In this document: positions 28,129 through 34,549 of the stretch, piece by piece
Position numbering within the stretch: the first letter of the stretch is position 1
Layout: every line of letters begins with the position of its first letter
Origin: Thermodesulfobacteriota bacterium
GTDB lineage: Bacteria > Desulfobacterota > Binatia > Bin18
Direction: 5' to 3'
DNA length: 64,000 nucleotides
NCBI GenBank assembly: GCA_964291405.2
Contig: OZ219926.1
Coordinates: 4,160,001-4,224,000 of the forward strand
Notes under the pieces: generated by a model
The model's database searches: none
What the model was told of the DNA's origin: nothing
Seen by the model: only the letters and a program-made list of their open reading frames with translations
Program-made: the position numbers and the translations under genes

Positions 28129-29451
28129 ATGAATCTTTTCCTCATTTTTCAGTACGGCCTTATCGGCGCGTTTGTCGCCCTGTTGGCGACTTTCCTGTTG
28201 GTCATGGTCTCCGACAGTGTGGAAGGGCATGTTTCCCACCTTTTGGGTTTATACACGAAAAACCCAATCCTGAAATTTCTCGGCATCGGCATGGGCGGCG
28301 TGCTGCTCGCTCTGCAAGCCTTGATGTCTTACAAACGGGCCAAGGCACTGGAGGACACCGCGAACGCCCAGGCTGAAGCAGCGAAGGCACAGGCCAAGGC
28401 CACGGAGGAACAGGCAAAGGCCAACGAGAATACCGAACAGGGGCAGCGGCAGGAACGCCTGAAAAACGCCATAGAGCATCTTGGACACGCCTCGGACTCC
28501 GTGCGTTTGGGCGGGGCTTATGAACTGTTCCATCTGGCGCAAGATACGAAAGACTTGCGTCAGACTGTCCTGGACATTCTCTGCGCCCATATCCGACGGA
28601 CGACGGGCGAGGCTGCGTATCGGGAAAAGTATAAGTTCGAACCTTCAGAAGAAGTCCAAAGCTTATTGACCCTGCTGTTCGTGCAGGAGCGTGAAATCTT
28701 CAAAGGTCTCCGTATCAACCTGAAGGGAAGCTGGCTGAATGGGGCTGATCTCAGAGAAGCACGTTTAGCCAGAGCCATTCTGACCAATGCGTATCTGCAA
28801 AGAGCCCTGCTTCAAGGGGCGCACCTGCAAAGGACCGGCCTTGCCGTGGCGCACCTAGAAGAAGCAGTTCTCACCAAGGCTTGGCTACACGGAGCCGATC
28901 TTCTTGAGACATACATGCAAGGAGCTGCTCTTCAATCTGTGCGGTTGTATGGAGCTGATCTTCGTGGGGTGAAAATGCAAGGAGCTTATCTACCCGACGC
29001 GCATCTGCAGGGAGCCTTTCTTCAGTCTGTGTCGCTGGAGGGGGCGACCCTTTCGAGGGCCCGTCTACAAGGAACTGGTATTTCCTTCATATATCTGCAA
29101 GGAGCCTCTCTTAATGAGGCGAAGCTGCACGGGGCAGGAACTGATAATTGGTCTTCTTCGATGCCTTTTGCAGAGCGCATCAAGAGGTCAATTGGCAAAG
29201 AAAGTAATCTGTCGAGCGTATTTTTTGGAGGTATAGGCCGGGGAGGTGTAGACCTCCTTGTCGAAGGCTTGTCTGATAAAAAAGCAAGAATACTTCGAGA
29301 GATACTGAGGCCACATATTGACCAGCCAGTAAGCCACGAATTACCGGAAAATAGCGGTGCCATCACCGGAGCCTACACAGCCAAAGAAGCAGAACAATGG
29401 ATTGCCGAATACAACGAAGCCATGTCAGAAGTACCTGAGGGCGATAGCTGA
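28129..29451 (+). CDS. Membrane-anchored pentapeptide-repeat protein
   Basis: Two N-terminal TM helices, a coiled coil, AIEHLG..SVRLGGAYEL, then about 25-30 A(D/H)Lxx pentapeptides. Confidence 0.88.
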   Translation: MNLFLIFQYGLIGAFVALLATFLLVMVSDSVEGHVSHLLGLYTKNPILKFLGIGMGGVLLALQALMSYKRAKALEDTANAQAEAAKAQAKATEEQAKANENTEQGQRQERLKNAIEHLGHASDSVRLGGAYELFHLAQDTKDLRQTVLDILCAHIRRTTGEAAYREKYKFEPSEEVQSLLTLLFVQEREIFKGLRINLKGSWLNGADLREARLARAILTNAYLQRALLQGAHLQRTGLAVAHLEEAVLTKAWLHGADLLETYMQGAALQSVRLYGADLRGVKMQGAYLPDAHLQGAFLQSVSLEGATLSRARLQGTGISFIYLQGASLNEAKLHGAGTDNWSSSMPFAERIKRSIGKESNLSSVFFGGIGRGGVDLLVEGLSDKKARILREILRPHIDQPVSHELPENSGAITGAYTAKEAEQWIAEYNEAMSEVPEGDS

Positions 29452-30986
29452 TGCCCACCCTCCACTGGCTCACCCGAGACAAAGACCTCCGCACCGCCTC
29501 CTGCGTGCCGTATCGGCTGTTGGAAGAAGCGCCTGACCTGTCGGCAGGGGAACCGGACACGAGCAATATCCTGATTCAGGGCGACAACCTGGAAGCGCTC
29601 AAGGCGTTGCTGCCGTTCTACGCCGGGCGGGTGAAGTGCATCTATATCGACCCGCCGTACAACACGCACTCCGCCTTCGAGCATTACGACGACAGCCTCG
29701 AACACACGCAATGGCTGGCGATGATGTGGCCACGCCTCGAATTATTGAGAGAGTTCATGACGGATGAAGGGTCAATCTGGATCAATATTGACGATGACGA
29801 GGGACACTATCTCAAGATCATTGCTGACGAAATCTATGGCCGAAGAAATTTCATCGTTAACTGTCTTTGGCAAAAGAGAACGTCGCCCGACGGAAGGATA
29901 AATATGGGCGATGCTCATGACCATATCTTTGTCTATGGCAGTCAGACGACAAGAGACAGTTTCAACAACCTGGCATTAACGGAGGAACAGCGGAGTTTGT
30001 ACAAGAACCCTGATAACGACTTACGTGGCCCGTGGGTTTCTACGGACTTCACTGCTCAGGGTTGGCGGCCGAATCAGATGTATGAAATCGTCACTCCCGC
30101 CGGCGTGCGATATTCTCCACCAGAGGGCCGGTGTTGGGCTAATGTCGAAGAGAATTTTACCCGTCTGCGTAATCAAGGGCGGATATGGTTTGGAAAGGAT
30201 GGCAGCTCTCGGCCACGTGTAAAAAACTATCTGTCGGAGGCAGAAGGGGTGAAATCCTGGAGTTGGTGGGCCAACAGAGAAGTTGGTCATAATCAGGAAG
30301 CCAAGAAAGAAATCAACGCTCTGTTTGGGGCATTGAACGCCTTCGACACTCCAAAACCCGAACGTCTCATCCAACGTATTCTTCACATTGCCACCAACCC
30401 CGGCGACCTGATACTCGACTCCTTCCTCGGCTCCGGTACCACGGCGGCAGTCGCCCACAAGATGGGCAGGCGCTACATCGGCATTGAGATGGGCGAGCAC
30501 GCGGTGACGCATTGCGTACCCCGCTTGCGAAAGGTCATTGACGGCGAGCAGGGCGGCATCTCAAAAAGTGTCGGTTGGCAGGGTGGGGGCGGGTTCCGTT
30601 TCTACCGGCTCGGGCCACCGGTGTTTGATGAGGAGGGACAGATTCGAGCGGACATTCGCTTTCCGGTGCTGGCTGCCCATGTCTGGTTCAGCGAGACCGG
30701 GCGTCCGTGGAATGGGAGCGGGGATTCGCCCTTCCTGGGTCTGCACGACGGCCACGCCTATGCGCTGCTGTACAACGGCATCCTGGGCGATAGGCGCCCG
30801 AATGGTGGCAACGTGCTGACACGGGCCACACTTGCTACGATTCGGGAAGAGATTGCGCGCAAGCATGCGCGTTTCAACGGGCCGATGACGGTCTATGGCG
30901 AACAGTCGCGCCTGGCCTCTGCTACTTTGGAGCGGGACGGCATTACCTTCAAGCAAATGCCGTATGATGTGAAGGCAAGAACCTGA
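29451..30986 (+). CDS. mod: Type III R-M modification methyltransferase (beta class)
   Basis: LIQGDNLEALK, YIDPPYN, central TRD, TPKPERL, DSFLGSGTT. Confidence 0.92.
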   Translation: MPTLHWLTRDKDLRTASCVPYRLLEEAPDLSAGEPDTSNILIQGDNLEALKALLPFYAGRVKCIYIDPPYNTHSAFEHYDDSLEHTQWLAMMWPRLELLREFMTDEGSIWINIDDDEGHYLKIIADEIYGRRNFIVNCLWQKRTSPDGRINMGDAHDHIFVYGSQTTRDSFNNLALTEEQRSLYKNPDNDLRGPWVSTDFTAQGWRPNQMYEIVTPAGVRYSPPEGRCWANVEENFTRLRNQGRIWFGKDGSSRPRVKNYLSEAEGVKSWSWWANREVGHNQEAKKEINALFGALNAFDTPKPERLIQRILHIATNPGDLILDSFLGSGTTAAVAHKMGRRYIGIEMGEHAVTHCVPRLRKVIDGEQGGISKSVGWQGGGGFRFYRLGPPVFDEEGQIRADIRFPVLAAHVWFSETGRPWNGSGDSPFLGLHDGHAYALLYNGILGDRRPNGGNVLTRATLATIREEIARKHARFNGPMTVYGEQSRLASATLERDGITFKQMPYDVKART

Positions 30987-31054
30987 TTGGTTGACGAGCG
31001 TCAGGACAGTTTGTACCTGATTGTCAGATCATGACTCCACAGGAGGACAGAGGA

Positions 31055-31246
31055 ATGCAGCAGACCTTTCGAGTGAAAGCTGTGTGGGACGCTGAGGCAG
31101 AAGTGTTCTACTCTGAAAGCGATATCGAGGGCTTGCACATTGAGGCGGCTACCCTTCGACTCTGCTCAGGACAGGCCCTGGATGAATTTGAAGCAATCAT
31201 GCTGGACGCAGCGCCTGAACTCATCATGGTGAACCATCGTACTTGA
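31055..31246 (+). CDS. DUF1902 (HicB-like) protein with an in-frame 8-aa repeat-derived insertion; possibly truncated at the C-terminus
   Basis: VKAVWDAEAEVFYSESDIEGLHIEAAT[LRLCSGQA]LDEFE...PELI..NH. Confidence 0.75.
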   Translation: MQQTFRVKAVWDAEAEVFYSESDIEGLHIEAATLRLCSGQALDEFEAIMLDAAPELIMVNHRT

Positions 31247-31253
31247 GAGGGCA

Positions 31254-31363
31254 GGTCCTTCGACTTCGCTTGCGCTACGCTCAGGACGAATGGGTGCTTA
31301 GGACCGCCGGTCATGCTGAGCGTAGCCCCGGAGGGGCGAAGTCGAAGCACGCTCAGGACGAAC
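31254..31363. repeat. Inverted doublet of CTTCGACTTCGC-x-GCTACGCTCAG repeats upstream of the GIY-YIG gene
   Basis: Forward unit 31254-31290, reverse unit 31311-31350, partial GCTCAGGACGAAC at 31351-31363. Confidence 0.85.
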
Positions 31364-31380
31364 GTGTGGGCGAGGGTGCC

Positions 31381-31677
31381 ATGAGTTTCTGGGTCTACAT
31401 TTTACGCTGTGGAGACGGGTCCTATTACACCGGTCATACGGATGATCTTGAACGCCGTCTTCACCAACATCAGGCCGGGACTTTCGGGGGATACACTTCG
31501 TCCCGGAAACCATTATCCTTGGTCTATTCCTGTCCATTCCCGTCGAGGGAAGAGGCCATGCGAGCGGAACGGCAGATTAAAGGTTGGAGTCGAAAGAAGA
31601 AAGAGGCCATGCTGCGCGGAGACTGGACTGCGGTCAATCGGTTGTCTCGTGGGAAACATAGGCATCAACGGTCGTAA
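31381..31677 (+). CDS. Small GIY-YIG nuclease (YhbQ/UPF0213-like)
   Basis: WVYILRCGDGSYYTGHTDDLERRLHQH...AERQIKGWSRKKK. Confidence 0.92.
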   Translation: MSFWVYILRCGDGSYYTGHTDDLERRLHQHQAGTFGGYTSSRKPLSLVYSCPFPSREEAMRAERQIKGWSRKKKEAMLRGDWTAVNRLSRGKHRHQRS

Positions 31678-31678
31678 T

Positions 31679-31863
31679 GGTCCTTCGACTTCGCTGACGC
31701 TACGCTCAGGACGAACGGCGGGGAGACCGTCGGTCCTGAGCGTAAGGCGCACCGCGCCTGAAGTCGAAGGGCGCTCAGGACGAACGGAACAAAGGCTATT
31801 GGTCCTGAACACCCGCCATTCATGCTGAGCGTAGCCCCAGAGGGGCGGAGTCGAAGCACGCTC
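31679..31863. repeat. Cluster of the same repeats downstream of the GIY-YIG gene
   Basis: Forward unit 31679-31718, reverse unit 31727-31772, partial unit 31773-31787, reverse unit 31819-31863. Confidence 0.85.
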
Positions 31864-31921
31864 GGGATAGGCACAGCACAAGCGCAAGCGAAGGACGAAC
31901 GGGTCTGGAAGAAGACGAGTC

Positions 31922-34549
31922 ATGCAACTGAAGCAGTATCAGGCCGATGCGCTGGCCGTTCTGCGCCGCTTCTTTGAAGAAGCCCGCATGGCCGGGCCGA
32001 GGAATGCCTACGAAACTATTACCAAAGAACCCGAATATGCGGACCGGCTCGGGCGCTATGGCGGAACGTATAGCGCCCCACTCACGGACCTGCCGAACAT
32101 GCCGTACGTCTGCCTGCGTCTGCCGACCGGCGGTGGCAAAACAATCCTGGGCGCTCACGCCGTTGCCGTAGCGCGTGATGCCTGGATAGAGAAAGACTAT
32201 CCGCTGGTCCTGTGGCTGGTGCCGACAAAGACGATTCGTTCGCAAACAGTCGAAGCCCTGAAGAACGCCGGCCACCCGTATCGGCAGGTTCTGGATGAAG
32301 ACTTTGACGGCCGGGTGCGCGTGTTCGATATTGCGGACTTTACCCATATTCGACCGCACGACCTGCGCGACCACTGCTGTATTATAGTCGGCACTATTCA
32401 GACATTGCGGGTGACGAACACCGAGGGCCGTAAGGTCTACGCCCACCACGAGGAAATGGAGCCGCATTTCTCCGGGGCCCAGAATGCTACGCCGGGCCTG
32501 GAGAAAATGGAGGGCGGCGTCAAGTTTTCCTTCGCCAACCTGCTGCACATCCACCGCCCGCTGATGATCGTGGATGAGGCCCACAACGCGGTAACCGGTC
32601 TGACTCGCGAGATGCAAACGCGGGTCAATCCGTGCGCGATTATCGAGTTCACCGCCACTCCTCAGCCCAAGTCGAATATCCTGTACAGCGTCTCCGCCCT
32701 GGAACTCAAACGCGAGGACATGATCAAGTTGCCGATCATGCTGTCCGAGCACGGCACCTGGCAAAACGCGGTCAACGGCGCGATTGCGAAGCGGGCGTCT
32801 CTGGCAGAAGCCGCCAAACGAGACGCCGCCTACCTCCGGCCCATCGTCCTGTTCCAGGCTCAGAAGAAAAATCAAGAAGTTACGGTCGAAGCGCTGAAAG
32901 AACATCTGACGGATGTTGAGCACATTCCCGCAAGCGTAATCGCCATTGCTACCGGCGACCAGCGGGAACTGGACGGTATCGACCTGTTCGATCCACATTG
33001 TCCGATTGAATACGTCATCACCGTCGAAGCCCTGAAAGAAGGCTGGGACTGTTCCTTCGCCTATGTGTTTTGCTCGGTCTCGCGTATTCACAGTGCGACA
33101 GATGTGGAACAGCTCTTGGGCCGCGTGCTGCGCATGCCCTACGCCAAGCGGCGTAAAGTTACCGATCTGAACAAGGCGTATGCCTACCTGTCCGAGCCGT
33201 CCTCGGGAGCATCCGCGCGGGCATTGACCGATAAGCTCGTTGCAATGGGATTTGAGGAAGATGAGGCGCGTGACAACATTGAGCCGGTACAGGGAGAGTT
33301 GGGAGGCGAGGACGGTCTTTTCGGTCTGCGCGACCAGCCGCCACCATCATTCCGGCATACGCTCTCGGTGACGCCAGAGGCGCTGTCAGCCTTGAAGCAG
33401 ACACAACGAGACGGTGTGACGGTGCGCGAGACTGGTGGCGGGAAAGTTGAGATCGAGATTGTTGGCCCTGTGGACGACGCTCTGGAAACGGTCATCCGTG
33501 CAGCGGTCCCGGAGGCGGAACATGGGCGGATTGATGAGTCCTTTGGGGAGTATCGGAAGCTTCTCTCGCCCGCCGAACGTGGTGAGAAGTTCGACGTGCC
33601 GCGTCTCATGGCGGAACTCCAAGGAGAGCTTGAGTTCGCCGATACCGACGTGTTCATGGAAGATCACGATTGGTCGCTGCTCAACCACTCGTCGCACTTG
33701 GATGAGCATGAATTTACGGTCCGTGAGACATCACGCAGTTTTGAGATCGACATTGACGGCAGGCACGTCACCTATCAGTTCGCCGGCGAGGAGGAGCAAC
33801 TCGCGCTGAACGTAGACGTAGCAGGCTGGACGCCTGAAGCTCTGGTGCTGTGGCTTGATCGACAGGTGCGTCAGCCCGACATCAGGCAGGGTGAATTGAT
33901 CAAATGGCTGTCCGAACTCGTTGGCCATCTAATAAACAGACGCGCCCTGCATATCGCTGCACTCATGCGGTGTAAGTTTATCCTGGCACGGAAGCTACGC
34001 GACAAAATTAGCGCCATTCGTCGGCAGGAACGAAAGAGTACCTATCAACAGCGTCTTTTTGCGCCAGAGGCAAAAGTCGAAATATCCTTCGACGATGCCT
34101 TCTCATTCAAGGCCGGGATGTATCAGGATCAGCGGCGATACCGGGGGCGCTGGGAGCCGGGGAAGCATTTTTTAGGTTCAGACCACGTTCCGGCTTTCGA
34201 CGGCGCGGACGATGGTGAAGAAGTCCAGTGCGCCCAGGAGCTCGACAGCCTGCCCGGCGTGAAATACTGGATTCGCAATGTAGCCCGCCACCCGGAGTCG
34301 TTCTGGCTGCCAACCGCAACGGACAAGTTTTACCCTGACCTCGTAGCACTGCTGAACGACGGACGGCTGCTCGTTGTCGAATATAAGGGGGCACATATCG
34401 CTGATGGAGCGGATACCGCAGAGAAACGGACCATCGGCGAACTGTGGCAACAAAAAAGCAACGGCAAGGGCCTTTTCCTCGTTGTTGAAAGACTCCTCAA
34501 CGGCCGGGACGTATACCAGCAGTTGATAGAGAAAACTGGTGCTACCTGA
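31922..34549 (+). CDS. res: Type III R-M restriction subunit (SF2 helicase + PD-(D/E)xK nuclease)
   Basis: LPTGGGKT, DEAH, LKEGWD, QLLGRVLR, C-terminal FYPDLV...VEYKG. Confidence 0.92.
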   Translation: MQLKQYQADALAVLRRFFEEARMAGPRNAYETITKEPEYADRLGRYGGTYSAPLTDLPNMPYVCLRLPTGGGKTILGAHAVAVARDAWIEKDYPLVLWLVPTKTIRSQTVEALKNAGHPYRQVLDEDFDGRVRVFDIADFTHIRPHDLRDHCCIIVGTIQTLRVTNTEGRKVYAHHEEMEPHFSGAQNATPGLEKMEGGVKFSFANLLHIHRPLMIVDEAHNAVTGLTREMQTRVNPCAIIEFTATPQPKSNILYSVSALELKREDMIKLPIMLSEHGTWQNAVNGAIAKRASLAEAAKRDAAYLRPIVLFQAQKKNQEVTVEALKEHLTDVEHIPASVIAIATGDQRELDGIDLFDPHCPIEYVITVEALKEGWDCSFAYVFCSVSRIHSATDVEQLLGRVLRMPYAKRRKVTDLNKAYAYLSEPSSGASARALTDKLVAMGFEEDEARDNIEPVQGELGGEDGLFGLRDQPPPSFRHTLSVTPEALSALKQTQRDGVTVRETGGGKVEIEIVGPVDDALETVIRAAVPEAEHGRIDESFGEYRKLLSPAERGEKFDVPRLMAELQGELEFADTDVFMEDHDWSLLNHSSHLDEHEFTVRETSRSFEIDIDGRHVTYQFAGEEEQLALNVDVAGWTPEALVLWLDRQVRQPDIRQGELIKWLSELVGHLINRRALHIAALMRCKFILARKLRDKISAIRRQERKSTYQQRLFAPEAKVEISFDDAFSFKAGMYQDQRRYRGRWEPGKHFLGSDHVPAFDGADDGEEVQCAQELDSLPGVKYWIRNVARHPESFWLPTATDKFYPDLVALLNDGRLLVVEYKGAHIADGADTAEKRTIGELWQQKSNGKGLFLVVERLLNGRDVYQQLIEKTGAT

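Follow-up and report, generated by a model that had tools for sequence, protein, structure and literature searches.

The 24 bp at positions 31152-31175 of the window, the 64,000-nucleotide stretch of DNA analysed here, are best explained as a copy of a discrete, non-palindromic 24-bp mobile unit, a reading to which, taken as a whole, we assign a probability of roughly 75%. The unit, CCCTTCGAC-NNN-GCTCAGGACAGG, is a complete element with fixed ends, and comparison of related genomes gives good support to both the element and its mobility, which would make it a very small kind of mobile DNA. Mobile DNA of this size is barely documented, and if a 24-bp unit without a hairpin truly propagates, the lower bound for a mobile element would be two arms of 8-9 nt. 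The genome that carries the window measures 4.95 Mb; among named relatives, the nearest are MAGs titled Candidatus Binatia.

A derived 24-bp insertion in a DUF1902 gene

The copy in the window lies in a small gene of a type III restriction-modification locus, the relevant features of which are as follows.

29451..30986, plus strand: type III restriction-modification methylase gene (mod), context (N6_N4_Mtase, 2.9e-43)
31055..31246, plus strand: DUF1902 host gene, 63 aa (55 aa without the insert)
31152..31175, plus strand: 24-bp unit CCCTTCGAC-TCT-GCTCAGGACAGG, putatively mobile; exact 24-bp gap in empty alleles, same phase and ends at 20 other loci
31176..31179, plus strand: CCCT of the original target, equal to the first 4 bases of the element (junction microhomology)
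31922..34549, plus strand: type III restriction subunit gene (res), context (ResIII, 7.3e-16)

On inspection, positions 31151-31180 read A-CCCT-TCGACTCTGCTCAGGACAGG-CCCT-G, and the placement of the unit is ambiguous by 4 nt, up to 31156-31179. Placed at 31152-31175 it encodes LRLCSGQA in the host frame. Starting from the ATG at 31055, with GGAGG a few bases 5' of it, the gene reads ...GLHIEAAT-LRLCSGQA-LDEFEAIML...NHRT up to the stop codon at 31244-31246; its C terminus, ending in ...NHRT, is shortened, intact relatives being ~83 aa long. The Pfam DUF1902 model (PF08972) scores 22.5 bits against a gathering cut-off of 22, over residues 13-42 of a 71-aa open reading frame only, and the match ends near the insert. 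Close homologs carry a precomputed PF08972 match; no NCBIfam model matches this protein or the GIY-YIG protein described below. In an AlphaFold model of the window protein (pLDDT 72, pTM 0.50), the inserted residues 34-41 are placed between a predicted strand (30-32) and helix (38-61), within the lowest-pLDDT block of the first six.

A homolog search with the DUF1902 protein returned 71 proteins, 27 of which were aligned with the window protein. The 8 residues are absent from 24 of these 28 sequences, some of them 95% identical elsewhere; among those without them are all homologs under such titles as Nitrospira, Latescibacterota, Gemmatimonadota and Rhizobium. Three sequences have the residues (the window protein, P0001 and P0002, the latter two as LRLGSGQA), and the last, P0062, is broken at another place by a different repeat-like sequence. 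At the DNA level the gene was found in 13 of 55 family genomes as 12 distinct alleles, 10 empty and 2 filled, the filled ones coming from this genome and from G149, which belong to different genera. The aligned loci L002-L010 read GCGGCYA-CCCTGGATG with an exact 24-bp gap, the empty site being GCGGCYA-CCCTGG, and L001 is filled. Among public contigs, those of X1 match the window exactly and, like those of X2 (1 difference in 151 bp) and X4 (31 differences in 566 bp), are filled; one sponge-metagenome contig from run X3 has a 24-letter gap at this site, with 10 differences. Because the insert is absent from most homologs, from most DNA alleles and from one public contig, the 24-bp insertion in the DUF1902 gene is real and derived, in agreement with the original prediction of an in-frame insert.

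Among related Binatia, the gene order mod-DUF1902-res is kept in L002, L004-L008 and L010. In L001 and L003 the mod/res locus has decayed, leaving only mod and res fragments. Separately, four DUF1902 alleles (P0015, P0026, P0030 and P0074) have an unrelated, repeat-like N terminus (…PLTLALSxQGRGD…) in place of MQQTFR, which suggests that a second repeat family may have replaced the 5' end of the gene.

Sequence, copy number and distribution of the unit

The window holds 4 occurrences of the two-arm pattern, where 0.01 would be expected by chance. We scanned 121 Binatia genomes for the exact 23-nt pattern CCTTCGAC-NNN-GCTCAGGACAGG, with the reversed pattern as control, and found 9 copies here and as many as 24 in relatives; the control gave no match in any of the 121 genomes. 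With tolerance for as many as 2 mismatches in the arms and for centres of 1-6 nt, the count for this genome rose to 25. The centre trinucleotide is free to vary among exact-pattern copies, the arms of which are set by the search, so that arm conservation among the scanned copies is partly built in. The 24-mer shows no significant fold (z +0.63 and +0.16 on the two strands) and its ends, CCCTTCG and GGACAGG, do not make up an inverted repeat. Units stand in tandem, 24 bp apart, at position 980062 of contig C3 (C3 980062) in this genome, in G002 and in G237.

The region from 978 to 985 kb of C3 is a repeat hot spot of this genome. C3 979740-980110 (L209 840-1210) holds a tandem array of four 79-bp units, in each of which an inverted long unit occupies the centre of a 24-mer; the array leads directly into two plain 24-bp units. 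Elsewhere, the same-site copies L159 (G005) and L195 (G116) have identical arms, as set by the search pattern, and differ at 2 of 3 centre bases; the window and L001 copies likewise share their arms and differ at 2 of 3 centre bases (TCT and TTG). Such a quickly changing centre could be the mark of a point of cleavage and repair.

The 15 Binatia genomes (of 121) in which the exact pattern is present represent 5 families. Further copies were counted in a MAG titled Nitrospira sp. (9) and in one titled Thermodesulfobacteriota (2); in the phylum of the former, 14 of 151 genomes carry the pattern, with at most 24 copies. Control patterns were at zero in all genome sets scanned. Overall, the occurrence of the 24-mer is patchy and extends over two or more phyla, which raises the question of exchange between co-resident symbionts.

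Filled and empty sites across relatives

Three copies of this genome were followed across 5 relatives. One, lying directly 5' of a ribosome-binding site upstream of a glyoxalase-like gene, is filled only in this genome and empty in all 5. Another, in the ccmC/ccmD spacer, is empty in 3 of 5; the 24-bp form is found in this genome (G000) and in G006, and a 34-bp form with a longer centre occupies the same position in G002. The third, in a glycosyltransferase gene, is empty in 1 of 5 (G006), and the G002 allele has a 42-bp long unit nested in the 24-mer centre.

For the reverse comparison we examined 60 of the 64 copies listed for G005, G108, G018, G116 and G013 (one G005 and three G108 copies were omitted; the other nine copy-bearing genomes lie outside this set) and searched both flanks of each locus against this genome. 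Both flanks paired at 51 of 60 loci. Among these, 20 differ by exactly 24 bp (17 sites, at which gain versus loss is unpolarised) and 4 by 48 bp; at 3 loci both genomes are filled, and the other 24, of which L167 and L187 were analysed further, show length differences other than 24 or 48 bp. Alignments of 26 cases gave the same 24 letters with the same ends each time. One of the 48-bp cases is a head-to-tail pair (L154); in the other three a copy lies within another's centre, L168 and L172 sharing a site and L170 being at a second one. In total, 21 clean filled/empty sites were found, which bears out the earlier claim that the repeat family is mobile.

Junctions and target preference

The junctions were analysed at 21 independent sites, 17 from relatives (one representative per site) and 4 from this genome, leaving out the 48-, 27- and 42-bp cases and complex ones. 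Summed over these sites, the flanks overlap with the element ends by 45 nt, compared with 16.3 ± 4.7 nt when the same 24-mers were placed at random genome positions (5000 trials, maximum 35, 0/5000 reaching 45). The overlap measures 0 nt at four sites, 1 nt at seven, 2 nt at two, 3 nt at two, 4 nt at four, 5 nt at one and 7 nt at one. In 16 of 21 cases the element is followed on its 3' side by a C (genomic C frequency 0.288; binomial 1e-5). No conserved word was found 5' of the element at these sites; C occurs at -3 in 11 of 21, a weak signal counted by eye. Of the 21 sites, only two, the window site and L200, have CCCT after the element. Since the overlap varies from 0 to 7 nt and CCCT is this infrequent, the CCCT repeat at the window site is one case of variable overlap and there is no general target-site duplication; the 4-bp duplication noted originally does not hold as a rule, and the 24-mer, which does not fold, is not palindromic. 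A precise loss between short direct repeats would likewise enrich microhomology at polymorphic sites.

Copies inside protein-coding genes

With a length of 24 bp the unit never shifts the reading frame. One of its six frames always contains TGA and the other five are open unless the centre makes a stop. Because the frame is kept and five of six frames can be open, copies survive in genes as 8-residue loop insertions. We ran a Pfam scan on 26 of the 60 loci, picked for the longest open frames across the unit. A Pfam family was matched at 15 of 26 loci, and at 8 (7 sites) the domain match spans the insert, in line with the earlier suggestion that peptides are added without frameshift in the manner of Rickettsia palindromic elements. 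The loci spanned in this way are listed below.

L155: aminotransferase class I/II
L159, L195: asparaginase_2
L164: MoCoBD_2
L165: GatB_N
L176: PMT_2
L181: GCV_T
L194: N6_Mtase

In CarB the unit stands between two domains (L173, L206). Clean 24-bp filled/empty pairs exist for 6 of the 7 domain-spanned sites, the exception being L194 (N6_Mtase), and for the CarB site L173. The unit thus offers a natural system for studying the tolerance of random 8-residue loop insertions in such essential proteins as GatB, CarB and GcvT.

The unit and its relatives also yield spurious peptides in predicted proteomes (LRLxSGQA, PSTxLRTG, PVLSxVEG, CPEPxRR and PFDxAQDR). In the Pfam-scanned genes these were seen as xLRxxSGQA, PSTxLRTG, PVLSxVEG and xCPEPxRR; PFDxAQDR occurs in unconfirmed frames only. 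As the inserted peptides blur Pfam matches, recognising the unit improves annotation.

A 57-bp composite of a 24-mer-like module and a G/C-run hairpin was observed in frame in pdxA and in a helicase gene. Both lie in this genome (C3 3005656-3005719 and 3155996-3156059) and most genus members have both; the pdxA copy is absent in G005, G006, G011 and G017 and the helicase copy in G006, G014 and G017.

Longer repeats and the GIY-YIG gene

Immediately downstream of the DUF1902 gene, longer repeats surround a small nuclease gene.

31254..31293, plus strand: long unit with 13-nt centre and GAACGG-type tail, starting 8 bp after the DUF1902 stop codon
31304..31367, minus strand: inverted long unit with GC hairpin centre and, after it, a lone right arm; brackets the GIY-YIG gene on the left (D1, D4, I3, I9)
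31381..31677, plus strand: stand-alone GIY-YIG nuclease gene, 98 aa (PF01541, 1.5e-19)
31679..31904, both orientations: right-hand long-unit cluster (31679-31718 plus strand, 31727-31789, 31813-31867, 31875-31904)

The arms CCTTCGAC and GCTCAGGAC are common to the 24-mer and the neighbouring longer repeats, and arm comparison upholds what had been noticed from the sequence. The centres of long units measure 13-19 nt and are often a GC hairpin; these units end in GAACGG, TAACGG or CGACGG, the 24-mers having their own 3' tail, ACAGG. Because long and short forms share a site and long units nest in 24-mer centres, the repeats are one modular family with two conserved arms and a free centre, of which the 24-mer is the smallest member. 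The junction CGTACTTGAGAGGRCAG of the long unit at 31254..31293 is common to L001, L003 and L007. The composite at 31304..31367 folds with -14.5 kcal/mol (z -2.0) and the segment 31725-31790 with -20.5 kcal/mol (z -3.7); an Rfam scan by E-value over 30900-32000 gave a single snoRNA match, at chance level (E 0.49), and the repeats fit no known RNA family.

The GIY-YIG gene is the sole stand-alone one found in this genome (single tblastn match), the other two PF01541 matches belonging to open frames of 636 and 679 aa. Of the units that bracket the gene, the left one is inverted and the right one direct. At 12 other Binatia GIY-YIG loci, arm units are found within 600 bp in 8 cases, and inverted pairs bracket the gene near its ends in 5 (G082, G111, G055 twice and G013). 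In run X2, one contig joins 31364 to 31723 via two direct right arms, without the GIY-YIG gene, at a depth of 21.6 against ~70 for the gene; because this contig skips the gene at such depth, the GIY-YIG gene itself is present or absent within a population.

Across Binatia, a GIY-YIG homolog (E ≤ 1e-8) was found in 32 of 121 genomes, a count that includes the unpublished genome G101. Homologs occur in 10 of 15 genomes with the 24-mer versus 22 of 106 without it (Fisher 6e-4, a value overstated because relatives are not independent); at a post-hoc cut of ≥54% identity the figures are 9 of 11 versus 6 of 110. The 24-mer is not confined to GIY-YIG-bearing genomes: 5 of 15 Binatia genomes with the unit have no homolog, among them G005, with 23 copies and none at E ≤ 1e-8. 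Outside Binatia, 6 of 7 tested genomes with the 24-mer have no homolog (G134, G138, G286, G314, G242 and G248), and the homologs of the remaining one, G237, are distant (34% identity) and have no flanking units. The link to GIY-YIG is structural for the long units and inconsistent for the 24-mer. Calling the family a GIY-YIG repeat, as had been done initially, is justified for long units that bracket GIY-YIG genes and unclear for the 24-mer.

History of the DUF1902 copy

All 17 filled protein alleles are of the truncated type, ending in ...NH(R/C)x, and empty alleles are both truncated and full length; truncation of the DUF1902 gene by the repeat cluster therefore preceded the 24-mer. The window copy is identical over 29 nt to the first unit of the C3 980062 array, including the TCT centre and the CCCTG that follows, and because of this match the two-unit array is the likely template of the window copy, or else its sister copy. 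In G116 only ~60 bp of the DUF1902 gene are left, and in G108 the gene is wholly replaced. A 24-mer beside the GIY-YIG gene of G108 was considered as the window's insertion and rejected, as the alignment has the DUF1902 gene replaced there and the copy is thus a different one.

Most likely, a single entry of the 24-mer into the DUF1902 site gave rise to the filled allele, which went on to spread and recombine among related Binatia associated with sponges. Independent insertion at this site on two or more occasions, as would be expected of a hot spot or a specific target, is an unlikely but serious competitor. The flanking haplotype of the window (6 linked sites) is that of L004, L006, L008 and L009, and that of L001 is shared by L002, L003, L005, L007 and L010. 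The differences between the two haplotypes continue until 2 bp before the insert, no derived flanking site is common to the window and L001 alleles, the TCT and TTG centres differ at 2 of 3 bases, and the filled genomes belong to different genera. Against this, the filled protein alleles occur as SES+C, SES+G and SQS+G, combinations that together with the shared truncated C terminus fit one origin followed by recombination. P0078 can be told from the window protein by the centre residue alone, and the locus exists in only 13 of 55 family genomes.

Proposed mechanism and candidate enzymes

In the sequence of events that we propose, the 24-mer would have entered a DUF1902 gene already truncated by the neighbouring repeat/GIY-YIG cluster. 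Insertion proceeds without a fixed target-site duplication, usually just 5' of a C, and the unit can also land in tandem or inside the centre of an existing copy. We infer that an existing copy is copied into a nick or break, primed by a few bases homologous to the element ends, with the C3 980062 two-unit array as the likely template in this genome. Because long units bracket GIY-YIG genes much as terminal inverted repeats would, the GIY-YIG nuclease is our leading candidate for the break-making enzyme, albeit a tentative one with the odds against it. The same arms bracketing a tiny nuclease gene at least make this candidate testable.

A wider possibility, likewise with the odds against it, is that the family was left behind by a bacterial DNA transposon of a kind not described before. 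The autonomous form, of ~450 bp, would carry a stand-alone 97-aa GIY-YIG nuclease gene between inverted arm units, and its solo ends would range down to a 24-bp module that spreads in trans by break-and-copy with few-base homology, nesting in other copies, entering essential genes in frame and crossing phyla in sponge microbiomes.

It is improbable that the 24-mer was moved by a REP-associated (RAYT/IS200-like) Y1 transposase, rather than by the GIY-YIG nuclease or host repair. Insertion without duplication is typical of this transposase family and fits the junctions described here. One Y1_Tnp gene lies at C3 982103, in the repeat-rich region that includes the two-unit array, and 4 matches were found in G005, which has 23 copies and no GIY-YIG homolog. 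However, the Y1_Tnp gene of this genome is interrupted by a 183-bp composite repeat, no match was found in G108 (24 copies) or G116 (9 copies), and the 24-mer has neither a hairpin nor a conserved 5' target word.

The interrupted Y1 gene spans C3 981600-982400 (L209 2719-3503), and the composite that splits it consists of two long units. With 6 copies at 98-100% identity in this genome, this composite looks recently active.

Even less probable is the origin first suggested for the window copy, in which a full-length repeat with a hairpin centre once stood in the DUF1902 gene and its centre was later deleted, leaving the arms. The ccmC/ccmD site does hold both the 24-bp form (G000, G006) and the 34-bp form with a longer centre (G002), and a 24-mer with a TTC centre matches a long unit from which the 11 nt between two short CGC repeats have been taken out. 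Yet the long form is present in none of 12 DNA alleles and none of 17 filled protein alleles of the DUF1902 gene, and at 20 other loci the length difference is exactly 24 bp, with identical ends. The tail of the 24-mer is ACAGG and not the GAACGG, TAACGG or CGACGG of long units, and tandem 24-bp arrays exist, as do nested copies. These features favor a discrete 24-bp unit over a remnant of a longer repeat. Finally, although the CCCT direct repeat could mediate a precise 24-bp loss, an ancestral presence of the 8 codons followed by their deletion in empty alleles is contradicted by the homologs with titles naming Nitrospira, Latescibacterota, Gemmatimonadota, Rhizobium and others that lack them and by the nature of the segment as a copy of a dispersed repeat, and we give it almost no weight.

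Comparison with known systems

In the literature searched, we found neither the 24-bp motif nor any 24-bp element of Binatia described, nor small GIY-YIG genes bracketed by repeats. The closest analogues of the 24-mer are the small dispersed repeats (SDRs) of cyanobacteria and the Rickettsia palindromic elements (RPEs). SDRs, reportedly described by Elhai et al. in 2008 in Nostoc and other cyanobacteria, are said to be ~20-27 nt long and dispersed, to nest in other repeats and to have no coding capacity; they are also said to have a predicted hairpin, and their mobility was reportedly inferred from filled and empty orthologous sites. No enzyme is known for them. The 24-nt dispersed unit fits the SDR definition of 21-27 nt, and shares with SDRs the filled/empty sites, the nesting and the lack of coding capacity and of a known enzyme. 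It differs from SDRs in its phyla (Binatia and a second phylum), in the lack of a fold and presumably in its sequence. Alongside these stand the frequent in-frame residence of the 24-mer in housekeeping genes and its junction microhomology.

RPEs lie in frame in unrelated metabolic genes, where the added peptide is apparently compatible with the fold, and are palindromic elements of ~150 bp confined to Rickettsia (PMC10969869). The 24-mer resembles them as a dispersed repeat found in frame in protein-coding genes. Whereas RPEs are palindromes of ~100-150 bp with a stable hairpin, the 24-mer is 24 bp long, non-palindromic and present in at least 2 phyla.

REP and REPIN sequences are presented as non-coding repeats of 20-40 bp that are thought to be moved in trans and to insert without duplication; REPs form hairpins, are extragenic, carry a GTAG or CGTC tag and flank a single-copy RAYT gene (PMC3116915, PMC3733652). 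The 24-mer is similarly very short and non-coding, causes no duplication and belongs to a family that flanks a single-copy gene. In contrast to REPs, it is free of hairpins and often intragenic, and the flanked gene encodes a GIY-YIG nuclease and not a Y1 transposase, so that neither the hairpin repeat nor the repeat-flanked RAYT gene that characterize REP/REPIN-RAYT systems is seen for the 24-mer.

MITEs are elements of 70-300 bp with terminal inverted repeats and direct-repeat duplications of fixed length; they are non-autonomous, are found via filled and empty sites and occasionally form in-frame fusions with open reading frames (PMC3184786, PMC10969869). The 24-mer lies below this size range and has neither terminal inverted repeats nor a duplication of fixed length, but like MITEs it is apparently non-autonomous, is revealed by filled and empty sites and resides in frame in open reading frames.
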